NCBI GenBank assembly: GCA_000165345.1
Contig: CM000436.1
Span: 928,001-992,000 of the forward strand
Direction: 5' to 3'
Length of the DNA stretch: 64,000 bases
Made by a program: the position numbers and the translations under genes. Below are positions 1 through 41,942 of this stretch, piece after piece; position 1 is the first letter of the stretch, and each line of letters opens with the position of its first letter. Under the pieces are notes generated by a model. That model saw only the letters and a program-made list of their open reading frames with translations. It had not been told where the DNA came from and did no database searches.

Positions 1-352
1 TTTATGTCACTTTCACAGGATACTGCTACTTCTAAACTCAAACTATCTAAGCTAGCGCCTATGACTATTCAATTTATGAGAGACTTGAAGACCTTTACAA
101 ATATTGAGTTTACAATTAAAGAAGATACCGAAAATGGTCTATTCATTATACTTTCTTGTACAGGAATAGGCTTCTCTAATTTCGCAAGAAAGGCAGCTTG
201 AAATTCTAATTAAACGATATGAAACTTCTCTCTGTCAAAAATATATTTGATTTTATAAATGTTAATTCGATTTAATTATTAAAAATTTTTACTAGGTTTG
301 AAAATCTTATCTCTTTATATTTTTGATTAATAGCTTCTTTCTTAATACATGC

Positions 353-1027
353 ATGCACGCAATCATTATTTCCTGTGTTAGGCAGTTCGCATATGGTAAA
401 ATAATCGAATTATATAAATATTTAAATTCTTTTAGATTATTTATGAAAATGCCGAGTTTTATTTCAACAATTTACATTCTAATCGGATTGTTAATGAAAA
501 TAGAAATTTCCTACTCTAAGTTTGAATTTTTAAGGAGAGACCATGCATACAAAAATGAAATATTTGAAAAAAATAATCAATCCATTTCTCAAAATAAAGA
601 AAATTTGCATCACTATTTACCTATTTTCAATTTTAGCGAAGAGTTTGTTGCTCCAAATAGAACTTATCAATTTCTTGAATTATACAAAGAAATTTCTACA
701 ATAAAAAGTGCTAATAGCGTTTCATTAAAAAAGGCCTATGTAGACCAAGTTTTGATCCCAAAGACAGATGCAAAGGTGGCGAAACTTAAAGCAGAAACTG
801 CATATATTGAGACAAAAAATGCAGCAAAGAAAAAAAAAATGAGCCAAGTTAAGGGCGACTTTGAAAAAAATATAACATTTTCGTCATTAATTGGAAATCT
901 TCTAAACTCATCTTCCCAGATTAATGGTACTCAGATATTGAATAATATTTATAATGAAACATTTTACTATCTGAATAATAAAAATATGAGTAATTCCACA
1001 GAAGGAATTGTATATGAGCTCGCTTAG
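353..1027 (+). CDS. hypothetical Lys-rich protein (weak; may be non-coding upstream region of ACC)
   Basis: ORF-track ORF 323..1027 starts with TTG. The first ATG is at 353. The protein is low-complexity and K/N-rich, with no recognisable domain. Confidence 0.25.
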   Translation: MHAIIISCVRQFAYGKIIELYKYLNSFRLFMKMPSFISTIYILIGLLMKIEISYSKFEFLRRDHAYKNEIFEKNNQSISQNKENLHHYLPIFNFSEEFVAPNRTYQFLELYKEISTIKSANSVSLKKAYVDQVLIPKTDAKVAKLKAETAYIETKNAAKKKKMSQVKGDFEKNITFSSLIGNLLNSSSQINGTQILNNIYNETFYYLNNKNMSNSTEGIVYELA

Positions 1028-10388: not shown

Positions 10389-11228
10389 ATGGATGAGGAG
10401 AAATCAAAAACTGAAGAGCAAAATGGCTCTGTATCTCAGAATATAAAAACAATATCTTTGAATGATAAGGCTATTTTAAATAATCAAAGCCCAATTATTG
10501 TCAGAAGGGGAGATCTTTCAGAAACTGCACTTGAATCTTCATTTTCAGAGCCTTTATCTGCTATCGATGACTTGAAGTCAGGATGTAATTTGTTTGAGAA
10601 GAAAAGTCCAAGAGATGAACAATTACGTGAAAAGGAAACAAAGCAGGCACTAAAATCAGTTATGAAGCTTCAGAATGAAATCTTTCACATTAATAATTCA
10701 ATAGTTTCTCAGGAAAATGCATATAAAAGTTCTTTATTTTCGAACAAATACATGGGTAATATTTTTAGTAGTTTCTCTCCTTTTATTAAAGGAATTAATA
10801 AATTCACTTTAAGACCAAAAGAAAAAAGCCCTGAAGAGGTATTGAAAAATATTAAGAAAAAATCTGAAGAATTTCAAGGAAGATGCAATTATATTAAGTA
10901 TTCTACTCAGTGGTATCTTTGGGCAAAAAGAAGAAACGCTGAGACTTACTCTCAAAACCATTTAGAAAATACAGATCAATCATCATCTAATATATCTAAT
11001 GGAGTAGGAAATCCACCTTTAGGAGGAACTTCTTCTACAAATATATCAAATAATGCTAACTTATCTTGCCAAAATAATATTGGGCAAGTTTTTCAATCAA
11101 ACCAACTTTTATTACAAAAAGAAATCCAGAACGTTGAGCAATCCGTTAAATTTAGGCTTGCAATACAGTCTGATAAGCCTTCATTTACCTTCAATAGTAA
11201 TATTTGTTCTAGTCAACTTTCGGTTTAA
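10389..11228 (+). CDS. hypothetical S/N-rich protein, 279 aa
   Basis: ATG-initiated ORF with no recognisable domain. It lies divergent to DIM1, and an E2F-like motif sits in the shared 270-bp intergenic region. Confidence 0.4.
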   Translation: MDEEKSKTEEQNGSVSQNIKTISLNDKAILNNQSPIIVRRGDLSETALESSFSEPLSAIDDLKSGCNLFEKKSPRDEQLREKETKQALKSVMKLQNEIFHINNSIVSQENAYKSSLFSNKYMGNIFSSFSPFIKGINKFTLRPKEKSPEEVLKNIKKKSEEFQGRCNYIKYSTQWYLWAKRRNAETYSQNHLENTDQSSSNISNGVGNPPLGGTSSTNISNNANLSCQNNIGQVFQSNQLLLQKEIQNVEQSVKFRLAIQSDKPSFTFNSNICSSQLSV

Positions 11229-11293: not shown

Positions 11294-11822
11294 TTATATT
11301 GAGTCTGTTATTTTTACAGAGCAAGGCATACTCCAAGGGTGATACTCATTATTGTCCGATATTTTTCCATTATATTTAATAATCTATTATGATAGATTAT
11401 GCGATAAATTAATTTATACGAATTAATGATAATTTACGCAACTTACCTTTGGAACGTTCTCAAAAATTTCAAAGTTTTCAAAACTTTCTTCTTTATCGTC
11501 ATTATTAGAATCTTTTTCTATATTCCGCATGAAGTTAATTTTGATGTTATAATATTGCAATTTTTACTAACTTACGACTTGAGTTATAAATTTTCTCAAC
11601 AGTTTTAATATGTTTTTTCATTACATCCTTTGCATCTTTTTTTACACCATCTCTAAATTGTCTATCCTTCAACTTCTTTTTCTCTATACTTTTGTCTCTT
11701 CTCTCCTTCTTTCTCTTTTGGAATCCATTAACAAATGATTCTTTTTTTTTCATGTTAAAAGTGATCAAAGTTCCCTTTCGGCCGTGTTTGGTCAAAATAG
11801 ACTTGGAATATTTATCCAACAT
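11294..11822 (-). CDS. small basic-N/acidic-C protein, proposed 3 exons: join(11822..11576, 11517..11447, 11383..11294), about 135 aa
   Basis: ORF 11547..11822 (ATG at 11822) reads through AGTC|GTAAGT at 11575..11570. A 58-bp intron ends at AG 11519..11518 (pyrimidine-rich ..ggaatatAG). The 71-nt exon 2 encodes QKDSNNDDKEESFENFEIFENVPK and ends AAG|GTAAGT (11446..11441). A 63-bp intron ends at AG 11385..11384. Exon 3 encodes IIKYNGKISDNNEYHPWSMPCSVKITDSI and stops with TAA at 11296..11294. All phases are consistent (1, then 0). Confidence 0.55.
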
Positions 11823-11951
11823 TTTTACAATTCAAAATAGGCTGAATGAAATATTCTGTTAAACTTAATAATGAAGATATATTCAGATTATCGACATGTC
11901 ACTATTTACATTATTTTGCTTCAATTGAATTTTTTCTTGATGTAAAGTAGT

Positions 11952-11963
11952 TTCCCGCCAAAA
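11952..11963. promoter_or_regulatory. E2F-like motif TTCCCGCCAAAA between the divergent genes 11822(-) and 12179(+)
   Basis: Reverse complement TTTTGGCGGGAA. It lies 130 bp and 215 bp from the two ATGs. Confidence 0.55.
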
Positions 11964-12178
11964 AAAGTACCGTTAATGCTGATGCATGGACGTGAAAAAA
12001 ATCATGAAATAAAAAGTTAGGCAAGATAGCACTTTAGTAGAATGACTAGTGAACAATAACAAATAACTAATAATTTATGTTTTATTGTGATTTTCTTTGC
12101 TGCGAAGCAATCGATTTATTTTACCCATAAAGAGAAAGATCTATATGAATTAATCTAAACGTGGAACTGAGTTGAAAA

Positions 12179-13384
12179 ATGAATCGATTAACTGAAAACG
12201 ATCAGGAACTTAAAACTATTCTTGATGGAGTTATGATTAATGACTGTATTAAACCATTTAGGAAGGTTTCAGAAAAATTAGAAGAGTTTGATCAATTTGC
12301 AACAGAATATGGAAATTCTTTAGATTCTAAAATTAATCAGATGCTAATTTCACTACGGAAAGATGAAATTAATTGCTTAAAATTAGAAATGAGGCTAGAA
12401 AAAATTCTTGAGTTAGTTACTGAGCAAATGCGTAAAGGCAACCATGAAGGTAAGGAAGACAAAGCACCAACTAAAAATATGGTAAAAACAGAAGAAATAA
12501 ACAAAAAAATCAAGAAAAGTGATGAAAAACAAAAAGAAAGTGGTGAAGAAAGAACTCTTAGCAGTTCAATGAATAGTATGGAATCTGTTCCTGTCGATCC
12601 TTTGATAAAAAGAACTCTTGAATTCGAAAACACTCAGAGGAAGATATATGAAAATCCTAACAATACCAAAGGATGTAGTATGCATGTTGAAGAAGAAACC
12701 TGTGATGAAATCAGTGTGAAAATAAGTACTGATGGTTCTGCAAGAAGCTTACTTTCGAAGTATATTAATGGCGAAAATAAGCATGGGAATGAAGTCAGAG
12801 AAAAAGATCCAAATGCAATTAGAAGAGAAAAGGTTGATAATATAAAAAGAACAGTCAAGCCTATAGCTCGTGATAACGGTAATAAAGGCAAGTGTTGTGC
12901 TTTTTGGAAGAAATGGTGCTGTTGTTGTCTATCAGATAAGGGCCCAACAAAATCGGGCAACTATTATAAGATGTCTATACAAGAATGGAAAGATTTTCTG
13001 GCATCAATTGAACCTAAAGATAAGAGATATAAGGACTACTGTAACATGTTAGAGAAAAGAAACGATTCTTATAATGTTGATATTGAAGGGTTACCCCCTT
13101 TGATTGTTGAATATTCATCTTTAAATGCAAAGGCTGGGGGAAATTATTATGGAAATCAAATGTACAACATGGGCCAAAATTATCAATATTATTATCCTGT
13201 AAATAATCAAGGTTATTATAATTATGGGCAATATTATTATGACGCTAGAAGTCAGGTCTCTAATATGTCTTATGTTAACAACAACCCAAATTATTTGAAT
13301 TTTAATAAGAAAGGTAAAAACATGCAAGAAGATGTTAAATGTAGACAAATGGTACATACAAAGATGGGAATAAGAAATGGTTAA
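12179..13384 (+). CDS. hypothetical protein with Cys cluster (CCAFWKKWCCCC) and Tyr/Asn/Gln-rich prion-like C-terminus, 401 aa
   Basis: ATG at 12179. It has a K/E-rich coiled-coil N-half, a CC..CCCC cluster typical of palmitoylation sites, and a C-terminus GNYYGNQMYNMGQNYQYYYPVNNQGYYNYGQYYYD. Confidence 0.5.
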   Translation: MNRLTENDQELKTILDGVMINDCIKPFRKVSEKLEEFDQFATEYGNSLDSKINQMLISLRKDEINCLKLEMRLEKILELVTEQMRKGNHEGKEDKAPTKNMVKTEEINKKIKKSDEKQKESGEERTLSSSMNSMESVPVDPLIKRTLEFENTQRKIYENPNNTKGCSMHVEEETCDEISVKISTDGSARSLLSKYINGENKHGNEVREKDPNAIRREKVDNIKRTVKPIARDNGNKGKCCAFWKKWCCCCLSDKGPTKSGNYYKMSIQEWKDFLASIEPKDKRYKDYCNMLEKRNDSYNVDIEGLPPLIVEYSSLNAKAGGNYYGNQMYNMGQNYQYYYPVNNQGYYNYGQYYYDARSQVSNMSYVNNNPNYLNFNKKGKNMQEDVKCRQMVHTKMGIRNG

Positions 13385-15294: not shown

Positions 15295-16107
15295 TTAAAG
15301 CCCAAGCAAATATCCCCCATATTTTGTTAGGAATACTTTATTATTCTCGTTATTCATACCCTTGTTGCCAAGCTTAATAGGTTCAGGACATCTAGATGCA
15401 GTTTTATATTGTTTAATTGTTGGCATAGAGGGGGTCTTTTGAATTTGATTCTCATTTACTTTTGAAAGGAGTGGGTTGCTCTGAACTTGCAGTCTATTCA
15501 CAGTAGGAATTTCTAAATAATTTTTTTTAGAGATCTGGCATTCTTTTATGCTTTTTTTTTCTGCTTCATTTGTTTTTAGTCTAGTGATCGAAGTATTTGG
15601 TTCATATGGAATTTTAATTTTATTCGAGTTTTGCACGTTAAAATCCTTATTAATTGGAGGATTTGAACTATGAGAAACGAACTTTGATCTTGGAATAATA
15701 ACACTTCTTTCCATTTCACTAGCCTTGTAATAGTTAATTGGCTCATTGAAATGGCAGCCAGTTTTAATTGGATTATCATTTTTAGAAATTTCAAGATGCT
15801 CAAAAATATGCTGCTTTATTTGATTTTTTGACTTTTGAACGTAGCTTTTAAGCGATACCGGCGAGCCAAATAGTTTATTATTTCTTGAAAGTTCAAGATA
15901 TTCATTTCCATGGCCTATTGATGTAAACAAACTTCTCTCAAAAATGTCATTATTAATTAAATTGTGTTTTGTATTGAAAAAAGAATAGTAGTCATTAACA
16001 TCTTGGTATACTTCATTAGATTTATGTTCCTCATCTTTCAAAAAATAATTATTAAGACAGCAGATTTTATCTGAAATGTTATTAATTGTATTCACTATAC
16101 TTTCCAT
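15295..16107 (-). CDS. hypothetical protein, 270 aa
   Basis: ATG-initiated ORF (ATG at 16107). N/K-rich, no recognisable domain. Confidence 0.4.
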   Translation of the reverse strand: MESIVNTINNISDKICCLNNYFLKDEEHKSNEVYQDVNDYYSFFNTKHNLINNDIFERSLFTSIGHGNEYLELSRNNKLFGSPVSLKSYVQKSKNQIKQHIFEHLEISKNDNPIKTGCHFNEPINYYKASEMERSVIIPRSKFVSHSSNPPINKDFNVQNSNKIKIPYEPNTSITRLKTNEAEKKSIKECQISKKNYLEIPTVNRLQVQSNPLLSKVNENQIQKTPSMPTIKQYKTASRCPEPIKLGNKGMNNENNKVFLTKYGGYLLGL

Positions 16108-27635: not shown

Positions 27636-28910
27636 ATGTTTTTCTCTTCGATGCCATTTGATATGGGTGGAGGATTTGATGGAAGAATGGGTGGAAGGAT
27701 GTCTCGCGAGGTTGATAACAAGAAATTATATGAGATCCTAGAAGTCAGCCAAGAGGCAACTTTAAGCGAGATTAAAAAGGCTTATCGTCGCCTTGCAATT
27801 AAACATCATCCTGATAAGGGTGGAGACCAGGAAAAATTTAAGGAGGTTAGCAGAGCATACGAAGTACTTAGCGATCCAGAAAAGAGAAAGATATACGATG
27901 AATACGGTGAGGAAGGATTAGAGGGAGGAGGAGGAGGAGCAGATCCAGTTGACTTATTTGATGTAATTTTCGGAGGTGGAAGACGCGCAGGCAGTAGAGG
28001 AGGTGGAAAGAGACGTGGCGAAGATTTGGTAACTCACCTCAAGGTCACTTTGGAACAGATTTACAACGGAGCAGTAAGAAAGATGGCAATAAATAAAGAT
28101 ACTATCTGTGCAGATTGTGAAGGTGTTGGTGGGCCGAAAGATGCCATCCAGTATTGTGAGCTTTGCCAAGGTCAAGGTGTCAGAGTGCAAATTAGACAAA
28201 TTGGACCAATGGTTCAACAAACTCAGTCTCCTTGTAATCCTTGTAAAGGAACTGGTAAGACCATTCCAGTTACCAAGCAATGCAAGAAATGCAGCGGTAG
28301 CGGATCTGTGAAAGAACGAAAAGTTTTAGAGGTCAACATCGACAAGGGTATTCCAAATCATCATAAGGTTACTTTTCATGGAGAAGCAGACGAAAAGCAG
28401 GGCGAAATCCCAGGAGATGTAGTTTTTGTTCTAGATGAACAAGAACATTCTGTATTCAAAAGGAAAGGCGGTGATTTATTTATTGAAAAGGATATCACTC
28501 TTGTCGAGGCTTTGACCGGTTTCAAATTTATCATTACTCATTTGGATGGTAGGAAACTCCTTGTTAAGTCAAATCCTGGAGATATTACTAAGCCAAGTGA
28601 CATAAAGTGCGTAAACAATGAGGGAATGCCAACTTACAAGAATCCATTTGTTAAGGGCCATTTGTTTGTTATTATTAACATTATTTTCCCAGATAAGCTT
28701 GACAGCAAAACTCAAGATCTTGTCAAGACATTGCTTCCTGCTCCAAAAGCATTAAATGTTGATGAAGATGACCCATCAATTGAAATTCATTATACAAGTA
28801 ATACCAAGCCATCTGAGGTCAAAGACCGCATCCAAAAAGAGGCGTATCAAGAAGATGATGAGGATGGGCATCACGGAGGTGCTGAAAGAGTATCTTGCCG
28901 TCAACAATAA
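27636..28910 (+). CDS. type-I DnaJ/Hsp40 (Ydj1/DNAJA-like): J domain, G/F region, 4 CxxCxGxG zinc-finger repeats, C-terminal CaaX (CRQQ)
   Basis: J domain: [35 protein letters not shown]. Zinc-finger repeats: [33 protein letters not shown]. The Cys four residues from the end suggests farnesylation. Confidence 0.9.
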
Positions 28911-40312: not shown

Positions 40313-41761
40313 TCATTCATCAATTGAAAAAAGTTCTGATCCCAAAATATTGGATGGATTGCCATGAGAATCAAAGATACACTCATTAACACTAGTGAAG
40401 TTGTTGCTCCAACCTTTATGCAGGCCAGATCTCAACATATGGAGAATACCTGTAAGATTATTTCCGTCAAATGCATTTTTGGGAAATTGTTTATATTCTT
40501 CAATAGTTGGAGAGATATAATATCTCAAGTTAATTTTTGGATACTTACATAAAACATTCTTTAATAGCTTCAATCCTCTAACTTGAGAGTGAAGAATGGA
40601 AAAACTTCTTGACAACAACTTTGTAAAAGTAATTTCTTGGCTTTCAGTGTTAGACTCTTCGTCACTAACTTTTGGTCCTGTATCTGGGAAAGTTTCAATT
40701 GCATCAATAACTACATCTTCTTGTCTTTTTGCAAGACCTAATTTGAAACAAGCTTGAATTGAATGTTCGATATTCATATTCATAACAACCCCACCATCCA
40801 TATAGTGGGATCCATTTATTAAAACAGGTGAAAATGCACCGGGTACAGATGTAGAGGCAAGCGTAGCATTAATTAAATCAGGTAGTTTTGTAGAGCTAGA
40901 ATTCCATGAAATATACTCACCATCTTCATATCTCACAGCTGATACCAACACTTCTCTTCTTTTAATTTTCAATGTACGATTATTAGCCATTTCTCGTTTC
41001 ATTTTTACATAAGTTTTGTTTTTATAAGGTTCAATTTGGTGACCAAAAGTGTCATTTAAATAGAAAAATAAGGGAGTATGATCGCAAATCGAATTTCTAA
41101 GTTTCTTTTTTGAACCAAAAAGGCCTCCTATATAGTGAGTAGCAAATTTAAGGATATTTTTCCAAATAGGAAGCGTACAATCAGAAAGATAGTCCTGTCT
41201 AATATTAGACCAAAGATTCCACAAATTTTTCACATAAGAAAATTCTTCACCAGGCTCATGGAATAATCCAGCAAGAGCTAAGATTCCTCCAATTGATACA
41301 CCCCCTATTACATCCCATCTAATAGTATTGTTGTATTTGGTGATATGCTGGCCCAATAAACCTCTTAAAACTCCTGTTTGCCAGGCTCCTCTGTTTGCTC
41401 CTCCAGAAAGCAAAAGAACATAACATTTATCTTCCTTGGATTTATAGTAAAACTCTGGAATGTTTTTTATTTGACAAATCATTTCAGAAGGAGTATTTAG
41501 ATAACTGCTTAAATTTGAATCAATAATATTTGGAGAGTAACCTTCTTTATCACTCTGAGAAGTTAATAACTTAAAGATCATGCTGTTGTTATTTTTAACG
41601 GCAATTTCCTCGAAGAGGTATTGAGCCTTTTCAATTTCTTGAGTAAAGTTACTAAAGAGTTCGCGTCTTTCATCTTCTTTTCGATTCCTAAATGTGAACG
41701 CTTCAGCTGCAACAAACTGATAAATAAAAAAAATATAAAGTATTAGATATACAGCTTTCAT
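40313..41761 (-). CDS. secreted patatin-like phospholipase (PNPLA family), about 482 aa
   Basis: ORF-track start 41818 is TTG. The ATG at 41761 gives signal peptide MKAVYLILYIFFIYQFVAAEA. Oxyanion motif LSGGANRGAWQTGVL, GxSxG nucleophile motif GGVSIGG, and catalytic Asp in MDGGVVMN. Confidence 0.8.
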   Translation of the reverse strand: MKAVYLILYIFFIYQFVAAEAFTFRNRKEDERRELFSNFTQEIEKAQYLFEEIAVKNNNSMIFKLLTSQSDKEGYSPNIIDSNLSSYLNTPSEMICQIKNIPEFYYKSKEDKCYVLLLSGGANRGAWQTGVLRGLLGQHITKYNNTIRWDVIGGVSIGGILALAGLFHEPGEEFSYVKNLWNLWSNIRQDYLSDCTLPIWKNILKFATHYIGGLFGSKKKLRNSICDHTPLFFYLNDTFGHQIEPYKNKTYVKMKREMANNRTLKIKRREVLVSAVRYEDGEYISWNSSSTKLPDLINATLASTSVPGAFSPVLINGSHYMDGGVVMNMNIEHSIQACFKLGLAKRQEDVVIDAIETFPDTGPKVSDEESNTESQEITFTKLLSRSFSILHSQVRGLKLLKNVLCKYPKINLRYYISPTIEEYKQFPKNAFDGNNLTGILHMLRSGLHKGWSNNFTSVNECIFDSHGNPSNILGSELFSIDE

Positions 41762-41942
41762 GTCTTGAATGGCTTGATAGAATCCAATCCTATCAAACTT
41801 GCTACTACAGTCCGTCAAATTCTTGGTTCGAAAAAAAATAACCTTCCAAGCTAAGGCGCGAATCTAATAATGTATAATTATAGGTACCTGAACAAAAATT
41901 AAGAAATACGGGGATTAAAGAGCTTCTTTATGAAATCAAATT

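Follow-up and report, generated by a model that had tools for sequence, protein, structure and literature searches.

In SNAP-25, a central cysteine cluster is multiply S-acylated and constitutes the sole membrane anchor, and cysteine-string protein (DnaJC5) is tethered to vesicles by a heavily palmitoylated string of ~14 cysteines in 24 residues. Multiply S-acylated segments at the membrane interface, which are also known from GAP-43, follow no true consensus motif; metal sites and disulfide knots, by comparison, need fixed geometry. Cryptosporidium ranks among the leading causes of diarrhea in children, and most genus-specific genes of these parasites have no assigned function. Ten genes for DHHC acyltransferases have been reported from Cryptosporidium (PMC3813974). 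Among the acylated proteins of the apicomplexan pellicle and inner membrane complex (IMC), such as ISP1-3, IMC32, GAP45, and the alveolins with terminal cysteine motifs, IMC32 is described as having palmitoylation sites and coiled-coil domains (PMC8545131). Here we examine cgd8_3710, a gene of Cryptosporidium parvum that lies in a 64,000-nucleotide stretch of DNA (assembly GCA_000165345.1, contig CM000436.1, positions 928,001 to 992,000 of the forward strand; hereafter the window). We class its 401-aa product as a putative member of the poly-cysteine, acyl-anchored peripheral proteins, to which a lineage-specific aromatic tail is added.

The closest analogs in mechanism are SNAP-25, cysteine-string protein, and the acylated lineage-specific pellicle proteins (ISPs, IMC32, GAP45), although the cgd8_3710 protein is a member of none of these groups. 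Like SNAP-25 and SNAP-23 (Qbc-SNAREs), it is soluble by prediction, has no transmembrane (TM) segment, and places helical or coiled-coil sequence N-terminal to a short central hydrophobic and basic cysteine cluster. The analogy is functional: there is no SNARE or SNAP-25 Pfam match in the C. parvum protein (E up to 0.1) or in 13 orthologues (E up to 1), an invariant Pro26 sits inside the first helix, a second SNARE-like helix of comparable length is lacking, and the rest of the protein is unrelated. With DnaJC5 it shares contiguous cysteines with hydrophobic flanks in a cytosolic protein, but the string is shorter (6 Cys in 12 aa, 3–7 across species) and Pfam detects no J domain; the DnaJ model works on this genome, since a DnaJ protein elsewhere in the window scores 9.6e-25. 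Like the pellicle and IMC proteins, it is lineage-restricted, lacks a TM segment, combines coiled-coil and low-complexity sequence with cysteines (whose acylation is putative here), and is expressed just before zoite formation. Unlike them, it has a central rather than terminal cysteine cluster and no Gly2 for myristoylation, and an exhaustive profile search revealed no sequence similarity.

An Intact and Constrained Gene Restricted to Cryptosporidium

The open reading frame is uninterrupted, consists of a single exon, and starts at an ATG that is the first start codon past the upstream stop; no in-frame start is possible farther upstream (Table 1). We identify it as C. parvum cgd8_3710 because published qPCR primers for that gene match inside it without mismatch and because the gene order fits the cgd8_3680 to cgd8_3740 numbering of published tables. 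An identical 401-aa product is called at ~0.93 Mb in three NCBI assemblies. A literature search found no mention of cgd8_3710 in the main text of any paper.

The initial annotation of this frame, made from the sequence alone, had named its interruption in related species as a result that would count against it; the frame is unbroken in 12 further species of the genus. Identity to the C. parvum protein is 93% in C. meleagridis (401 aa), 85% in chipmunk genotype I (401 aa), 77% in C. ubiquitum (399 aa), 69% in C. canis (397 aa), 66% in a Cryptosporidium orthologue from a Logan assembly (454 aa), 53% in C. felis (487 aa), ~40% in C. bovis (523 aa), C. xiaoi (509 aa), and C. ryanae (555 aa), and 23–25% in the gastric species C. 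andersoni (310 aa), C. muris (303 aa), and C. serpentis (314 aa). The syntenic arrangement is the same in C. meleagridis, C. ubiquitum, C. bovis, and C. andersoni. Ratios of nonsynonymous to synonymous substitution (dN/dS, Nei-Gojobori) for the whole gene are 0.15 between C. parvum and C. meleagridis, 0.095 between C. parvum and C. ubiquitum, and 0.108 between C. meleagridis and C. ubiquitum, and in these three pairs the only near-neutral part is the Lys/Glu-rich linker (dN/dS 0.5–0.9). Insertions recur at a lineage-specific hot spot that follows ...YING and lies between two strongly conserved blocks, where C. bovis and C. xiaoi carry ~100 extra residues and C. ryanae carries a (GGAGKGEASK)n repeat.

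Searches for relatives outside the genus were negative. Only Cryptosporidium proteins were matched when the search used the single sequence or a profile (k-mer/HMMER), or when the divergent protein of C. andersoni served as the query; an exhaustive HMMER search that compared the profile with 1.84 billion cluster representatives yielded no credible relative outside Cryptosporidium. The sole match of that search from another organism, a 5697-aa protein (E 4e-5) aligned over 14 short stretches at profile positions 293–327, is probably low-complexity or compositional noise. Pfam assigned no domain to the C. parvum protein at E up to 0.1; among the 13 orthologues at E up to 1, subthreshold matches to Stonustoxin_helical (4/13) and CCDC53 (2/13) fell on the coiled-coil part and were taken as noise. 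A profile search of the PDB returned nothing (best E 0.99). AlphaFold2 (AF2) models of the full-length protein with 8 sequences and of the conserved core (aa 123–320) with 11 sequences are unusable, with mean predicted local distance difference test (pLDDT) scores of 40.6 and 44.8, and a Foldseek comparison of the full-length model with the PDB gave a best E of 2, meaningless given the poor model. Together, these results show that cgd8_3710 is under strong purifying selection and restricted to Cryptosporidium.

A Constrained Cysteine String in a Protein Predicted to Be Cytosolic

Both peptides to which the initial annotation drew attention, the cysteine-rich CCAFWKKWCCCCLSDK and the Tyr/Asn/Gln/Gly-rich GNYYGNQMYNMGQNYQYYYPVNNQGYYNYGQYYYD, are present, and both are compositionally extreme. 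The central string KCCAFWKKWCCCCL holds six cysteines in 12 residues (239, 240, 247, 248, 249, 250). In 100,000 position shuffles, confinement of 6 of the protein's 12 Cys to 13 residues had P ~6e-5 and confinement of 13 of its 24 Tyr to 36 residues had P ~1e-5. No other open reading frame of 200 aa or more in the window exceeds 4 Cys per 17 aa or 6 Tyr per 36 aa. Given a frame intact in 12 other species and dN/dS of 0.10–0.15, neither cluster is a chance product of an unselected reading frame. Kyte-Doolittle hydropathy over 19-residue windows reaches a maximum of only 0.36, and the N terminus (MNRLTENDQELK...) is hydrophilic and begins with a Met conserved among orthologues; on these grounds the protein has neither a signal peptide nor a TM helix and is by prediction cytosolic.

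Constraint is strongest in the cysteine segment, where dN is ~0 and synonymous sites are saturated: the segment shows no nonsynonymous change relative to C. meleagridis and a dN of 0.02 relative to C. ubiquitum. All 13 orthologues keep 3–7 cysteines at the same place, flanked by W/F/L/Y and K, while exact positions wobble. The cluster reads KCCAFWKKWCCCC in the parvum group, KCKGLLKKWCCCCCC in C. felis, LCCFLDNWCCC in C. bovis and C. xiaoi, LCHFLDKWCCC in C. ryanae, KCCKYWEYIKNC..TC in C. andersoni, KCYKYWEYIKNC..TC in C. muris, and KYCKCWEYIKNC..TC in C. serpentis; the variants include KCYKYW..NC and KYCKCW..NC. The local charge around the string is basic, with 8 K+R against 2 D+E. Two features of the S-acylated poly-cysteine class are present, a cytosolic topology and a cysteine cluster that lies among hydrophobic and basic residues and is conserved as a cluster. 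S-acylation of the string is a plausible and well-motivated reading of these patterns, and we consider it on balance probable. The initial description of a textbook multipalmitoylation motif was right in that the cluster is real and constrained and its context fits S-acylation; "textbook" overstates the case because S-acylation lacks a consensus motif, and the likeness is a resemblance rather than a test.

Cysteine-rich clusters can also bind metals, and the string could instead be a metal-binding or redox center (metallothionein-like, Fe-S, or Zn) in a soluble cytosolic or nuclear protein whose basic helices serve as a nuclear localization signal or bind nucleic acid and whose tail resembles those of RNA-binding granule proteins. 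Such a reading would accommodate the conserved basic stretches (that of the central blocks and the C-terminal KKGK...) and a 12 h transcript peak that coincides with S-phase genes, with Rad51 in the same expression cluster and an E2F-like candidate element upstream. The cysteines themselves point elsewhere: they include a contiguous CCCC, have no fixed CxxC or CxC spacing, wobble in position, and vary in number from 3 to 7, all of which speaks against a defined coordination geometry, and their flanks carry the Trp, Phe, and Leu usual at membrane interfaces. At E up to 1, none of the 13 orthologues matched a zinc-finger, metallothionein, or RNA-binding family of Pfam. Because cysteine number and aromatic and basic flanks are kept and exact spacing is not, we favor acylation over a metal site or disulfide knot and regard the metal-binding alternative as unlikely.

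A Tyrosine-Rich Tail Confined to the Intestinal Clade

In all 10 intestinal-clade sequences the region after ...VEYSSLN spans 85–170 aa, contains 13–22 Tyr, and consists of 45–60% Y+N+G+Q, a composition that survives extensive indels, including those of C. felis, C. bovis, and C. ryanae. The tail has dN/dS ~0.18 relative to C. meleagridis, and relative to C. ubiquitum its proportions of nonsynonymous and synonymous differences are 0.075 (pN) and 0.855 (pS); its amino acid sequence is constrained within the parvum–ubiquitum group. A DNA-level repeat origin was considered and ruled out, since Tandem Repeats Finder found no tandem repeat there. The tail is predicted to be disordered (AF2 pLDDT ~26–31). 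It is absent from all three gastric species, whose proteins end five residues past the VEY block (...VEYDSIIKPDK). The C. andersoni stop codon is followed by the next gene after only 138 nt, so this species genuinely lacks the tail. Tail and C-terminal helix thus form a clade-specific accessory, the product of a gain on the intestinal branch or of a loss on the gastric one.

The C terminus had been called prion-like. An aromatic, N/Q-rich tail does exist, and like FUS-type and prion-like domains it combines Tyr "stickers" with polar N/Q/G "spacers" and predicted disorder. It is, however, much shorter (~36–57 aa, with a dense core of ~36 aa) and far denser in Tyr (36%), and the C. parvum protein contains no [GS]Y[GS] motif. 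The Michelitsch-Weissman criterion for Q/N-rich regions is reportedly at least 30 Q+N per 80-residue window; the C. parvum maximum is 24, and maxima among orthologues range from 17 to 31, with C. bovis alone reaching 31. The tail is fairly described as aromatic, sticker-rich low-complexity sequence, and a prion-like domain is not established.

We propose that the tail may act as a multivalent self-association module. A narrower form of the membrane-anchor explanation makes this central, with the acylated string pinning the protein and the Tyr-rich tail driving phase separation into a membrane-tethered condensate. The extreme Tyr density (13/36 residues, with N/Q/G spacers), the purifying selection on a sequence that is no DNA microsatellite, and the composition kept across indels are all in keeping with it. 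Set against these are the short dense core, the modest Q+N content, the lack of [GS]Y[GS], and the three gastric species, which lack the tail and C-terminal helix and keep every other block, so that the core function can do without both. We think a tail-driven condensate improbable.

The same dispensability would fit a different view, in which the core function is unrelated to membranes (for example, that of an adaptor in a genus-specific complex) and the cysteine string and tail are tolerated features of an AT-rich genome. Codons for Tyr, Asn, and Lys are AT-rich, 22 of the 24 Tyr codons are TAT, and neither a fold nor a family can be assigned. Tolerance accounts poorly for the cysteine segment, which is more constrained than any other part of cgd8_3710 and has almost no amino acid change at saturated synonymous divergence; AT bias does not favor the Cys codons TGT and TGC, and dN in the tail is well below dS. 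This alternative seems to us doubtful, though it deserves some weight.

Expression Peaks During Meront Development

The initial annotation had also named a lack of transcription as a result that would count against it; the transcript is detected by reverse transcription-quantitative PCR (RT-qPCR), by sorted-cell RNA-seq, and by microarray, and cgd8_3710 is a genuine, transcribed protein-coding gene. In an RT-qPCR time course over 72 h (means relative to 18S rRNA; PMC3305300), the transcript is all but absent at 2 and 6 h (1.2e-8 and 1.7e-9), reaches its maximum in immature meronts at 12 h (6.4e-7), falls to 1.1e-7 at 24 h, rises again to a lesser peak at 36 h (2.4e-7), and then stands at 6.5e-8 and 6.7e-8 at 48 and 72 h. 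The neighboring gene cgd8_3690 (DIM1) is flat in the same course, and the 12 h spike is the only gene-specific contrast that we found. Genes of the 12 h and 12+36 h clusters are enriched for cytoskeletal, IMC, and apical-complex functions that precede zoite formation (PMC3305300), and a reclustering places cgd8_3710 with a myosin heavy chain, Rad51, and several hypothetical genes. In sorted cells (PMC6877471), log2 counts per million (CPM) are 3.97 for asexual stages, 1.34 for females grown in vitro, and 5.21 for in vivo "females", a population that includes post-fertilization cells making sporozoites; in vitro females differ from asexual stages by a log2 fold change of −2.63. An apparent sporozoite enrichment (8.3 vs. 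~3 log2 CPM, Tandel data) is not taken to be gene-specific because neighboring housekeeping genes are similarly offset. The robust conclusion is that cgd8_3710 is transcribed at a low level and is not up-regulated in females.

These profiles bear directly on the suggestion that the protein is a structural component of the oocyst wall or eggshell, its Tyr-rich tail cross-linked through dityrosines as in Eimeria GAM56/GAM82. The protein resembles the GAMs in its Tyr-rich low-complexity region and the COWPs in its Cys richness, and in vivo sorted "females" do express more of the transcript than in vitro females. Unlike these proteins, however, it has no signal peptide or TM segment, does not repeat its cysteines periodically in the COWP manner, and shows no up-regulation in macrogametes, where its transcript is 2.6 log2 units lower in vitro than in asexual stages. 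Its 12 h peak is at odds with COWP genes, which peak at 48–72 h (PMC3305300), and dityrosines are reported to be missing from the Cryptosporidium oocyst wall (PMC3760245). Gastric species without the tail also make robust oocysts. We therefore set the wall reading aside as highly improbable.

Domain Architecture and Genomic Context

Constraint is unevenly distributed along the protein. The N-terminal hairpin is the only region with AF2 pLDDT of ~55–75; it has dN/dS of 0.08–0.14 and is conserved as far as the gastric species, with LRLEKILEL invariant, and we propose that it is an oligomerization or partner-binding module. The central blocks (dN/dS 0.07–0.09) contain invariant residues and have no confident AF2 fold. 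In the post-cluster blocks (dN/dS 0.02–0.09), W270, F273, L305, P307, V310, Y312, and S314 are invariant in 13/13 orthologues. The C-terminal helix conserves KG..MQ..K..Q within the intestinal clade and is absent from the gastric species.

Table 1. Features of cgd8_3710 and of its surroundings, in window coordinates
Feature	Position (strand)	Residues	Sequence or motif	Remarks
cgd8_3710 reading frame	12179..13384 (+)	401 aa + stop		ATG start
N-terminal helical hairpin or coiled coil	12194..12439 (+)	6-87	ENDQELK...LKLEMRLEKILELV	AF2 helices 6-45, 47-58, 61-87
Lys/Glu-rich variable linker	12440..12544 (+)	88-122		AF2 pLDDT ~30
Imperfect tandem repeats in linker DNA	12486-12551			A-rich; periods 12 and 21
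Published qPCR primer	12448-12469 (+)			
Published qPCR primer	12585-12606 (-)			
Conserved central blocks	12545..12886 (+)	123-236	RTLSSSMNSMESVPVDPLIKR, EISVKISTDGSARSLLSKYING, KDPNAxRRxKVDNIKRTVKP	Last motif a basic helix
Insertion hot spot	~12775 equivalent		after ...YING	
Cysteine string	12887..12943 (+)	237-255	GKCCAFWKKWCCCCLSDKG	Proposed multiple S-acylation site and membrane anchor
Cysteine peptide of the initial annotation	12893-12940	239-254	CCAFWKKWCCCCLSDK	
Conserved post-cluster blocks	12944..13132 (+)	256-318	GPTKSGNYYKMSxQEWKDFLASIEPKD and GLPPLIVEYSSLN	
Tyr/Asn/Gly/Gln-rich low-complexity tail	13133..13303 (+)	319-375		Dense core aa 321-355
Tyr-rich peptide of the initial annotation	13139-13243	321-355	GNYYGNQMYNMGQNYQYYYPVNNQGYYNYGQYYYD	
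C-terminal basic helix	13304..13381 (+)	376-401	KKGKNMQEDVKCRQ...	AF2 helix 379-395, low confidence
Nop25/cgd8_3710 divergent intergenic region	11823..12178			356 bp; presumed promoter (sequence and neighboring gene calls)
Candidate cis-element	11951-11959		TTTCCCGCC	
Candidate cis-element	11983-11988		TGCATG	
cgd8_3700	10389..11228 (+)	279 aa		
Nop25-domain gene	11294..11822 (-)	135 aa in NCBI calls		
cgd8_3730	15295..16107 (-)	270 aa		
DnaJ protein	27636..28910			
Patatin-like phospholipase gene	40313..41818 (-)			Pfam E 1.9e-22
Patatin-like phospholipase gene	41943..43784 (+)			Pfam E 3.3e-10

The window is AT-rich (~33% GC). The local gene order is acetyl-CoA carboxylase (ACC), DIM1 (−), a 279-aa protein, Nop25 (−), cgd8_3710, an Mpe1/RBBP6-like zinc-knuckle RING protein (−), a 270-aa protein (−), and an amino acid transporter (−); published tables list cgd8_3680 as ACC, 3690 as DIM1, 3700, 3710 as "uncharacterized protein", 3720 as RING/Mpe1p-like, 3730, and 3740 as an amino acid transporter. 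The divergent intergenic region upstream of cgd8_3710 contains TTTCCCGCC, which we take to be E2F-like, and TGCATG, both candidate apicomplexan cis-elements that may have a part in the spike of expression at 12 h.

Other genes of the window gave several side observations. The Nop25-domain gene between cgd8_3700 and cgd8_3710 contains an intron, so that a plain open reading frame shows only a 91-aa exon; it has no cgd number in expression tables from 2012–2019, which suggests that the original annotation of the genome missed it. Both cgd8_3700 and cgd8_3730 lack a Pfam domain and keep their syntenic place from C. parvum to C. andersoni. Farther along, two patatin-like phospholipase genes form an adjacent, divergent pair.

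Discussion

Our preferred explanation, which we hold tentatively and at slightly less than even confidence, is a composite one: cgd8_3710 would encode a genus-specific cytosolic protein that is tethered to a membrane by an acylated cysteine string, binds partners, and acts during zoite assembly in meronts and probably in sporulating oocysts. Its parts differ in strength, with acylation the firmest, the step from timing to function less so, and the role of the tail less again. We infer that one of the parasite's DHHC acyltransferases S-acylates the central string, making the product a peripheral membrane protein. Trp, Phe, and Lys around the cysteines would provide a weak first membrane affinity, and multiple acylation would then lock the protein on the membrane, where the N-terminal hairpin and the short central blocks could bind partners or oligomerize in a scaffold role. 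Multivalent self-association may be contributed by the Tyr-rich tail in species of the intestinal clade. The site would be the nascent pellicle or IMC, or a secretory or vesicular membrane, as invasive zoites assemble. A role in zoite assembly rather than in the oocyst wall is suggested by transcript levels that rise at 12 h and once more at 36 h and are reduced in macrogametes.

Several observations weigh against this explanation. The gastric species are down to 3–4 cysteines in the string. Transcript levels are low (log2 CPM 1–6 in sorted cells, microarray signal 8.8), and cgd8_3710 is absent from the supplementary mass spectrometry tables of the Haserick study (PMC5549699). The neighbors cgd8_3720 and cgd8_3730 show the same pattern across sorted cells (asexual above in vitro female, in vitro female below in vivo female) and the same sporozoite excess, so that neither contrast is specific to cgd8_3710. 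Zoite assembly is also not the sole reading of the 12 h peak, given the coincident S-phase genes, the co-clustered Rad51, and the E2F-like candidate site. Finally, since structure prediction failed, no fold backs a scaffold role. Separately, cgd8_3710 is not listed in the CRISPR-screen supplement.

Nothing in current understanding is overturned by these results; they offer a lead for tagging and acylation work that will not surprise specialists and is not a discovery in itself. Its presence throughout the genus, the strong purifying selection on it, and its activation at the time when invasive cells are built make cgd8_3710 a sensible candidate for a structural or trafficking component peculiar to the parasite, and the gene lends itself to a clean test of targeting through S-acylation in Cryptosporidium. 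The clade-specific gain or loss of the tail likewise offers a ready comparison for what aromatic low-complexity tails do on membranes. A more elaborate version, in which a genus-specific, multiply S-acylated scaffold sits on the membrane of the forming zoite and an intestinal ancestor gained the Tyr "sticker" tail to yield a membrane-bound condensate or meshwork, strikes us as quite improbable; if it were true, the presence and absence of the tail would constitute a natural experiment between intestinal and gastric species.

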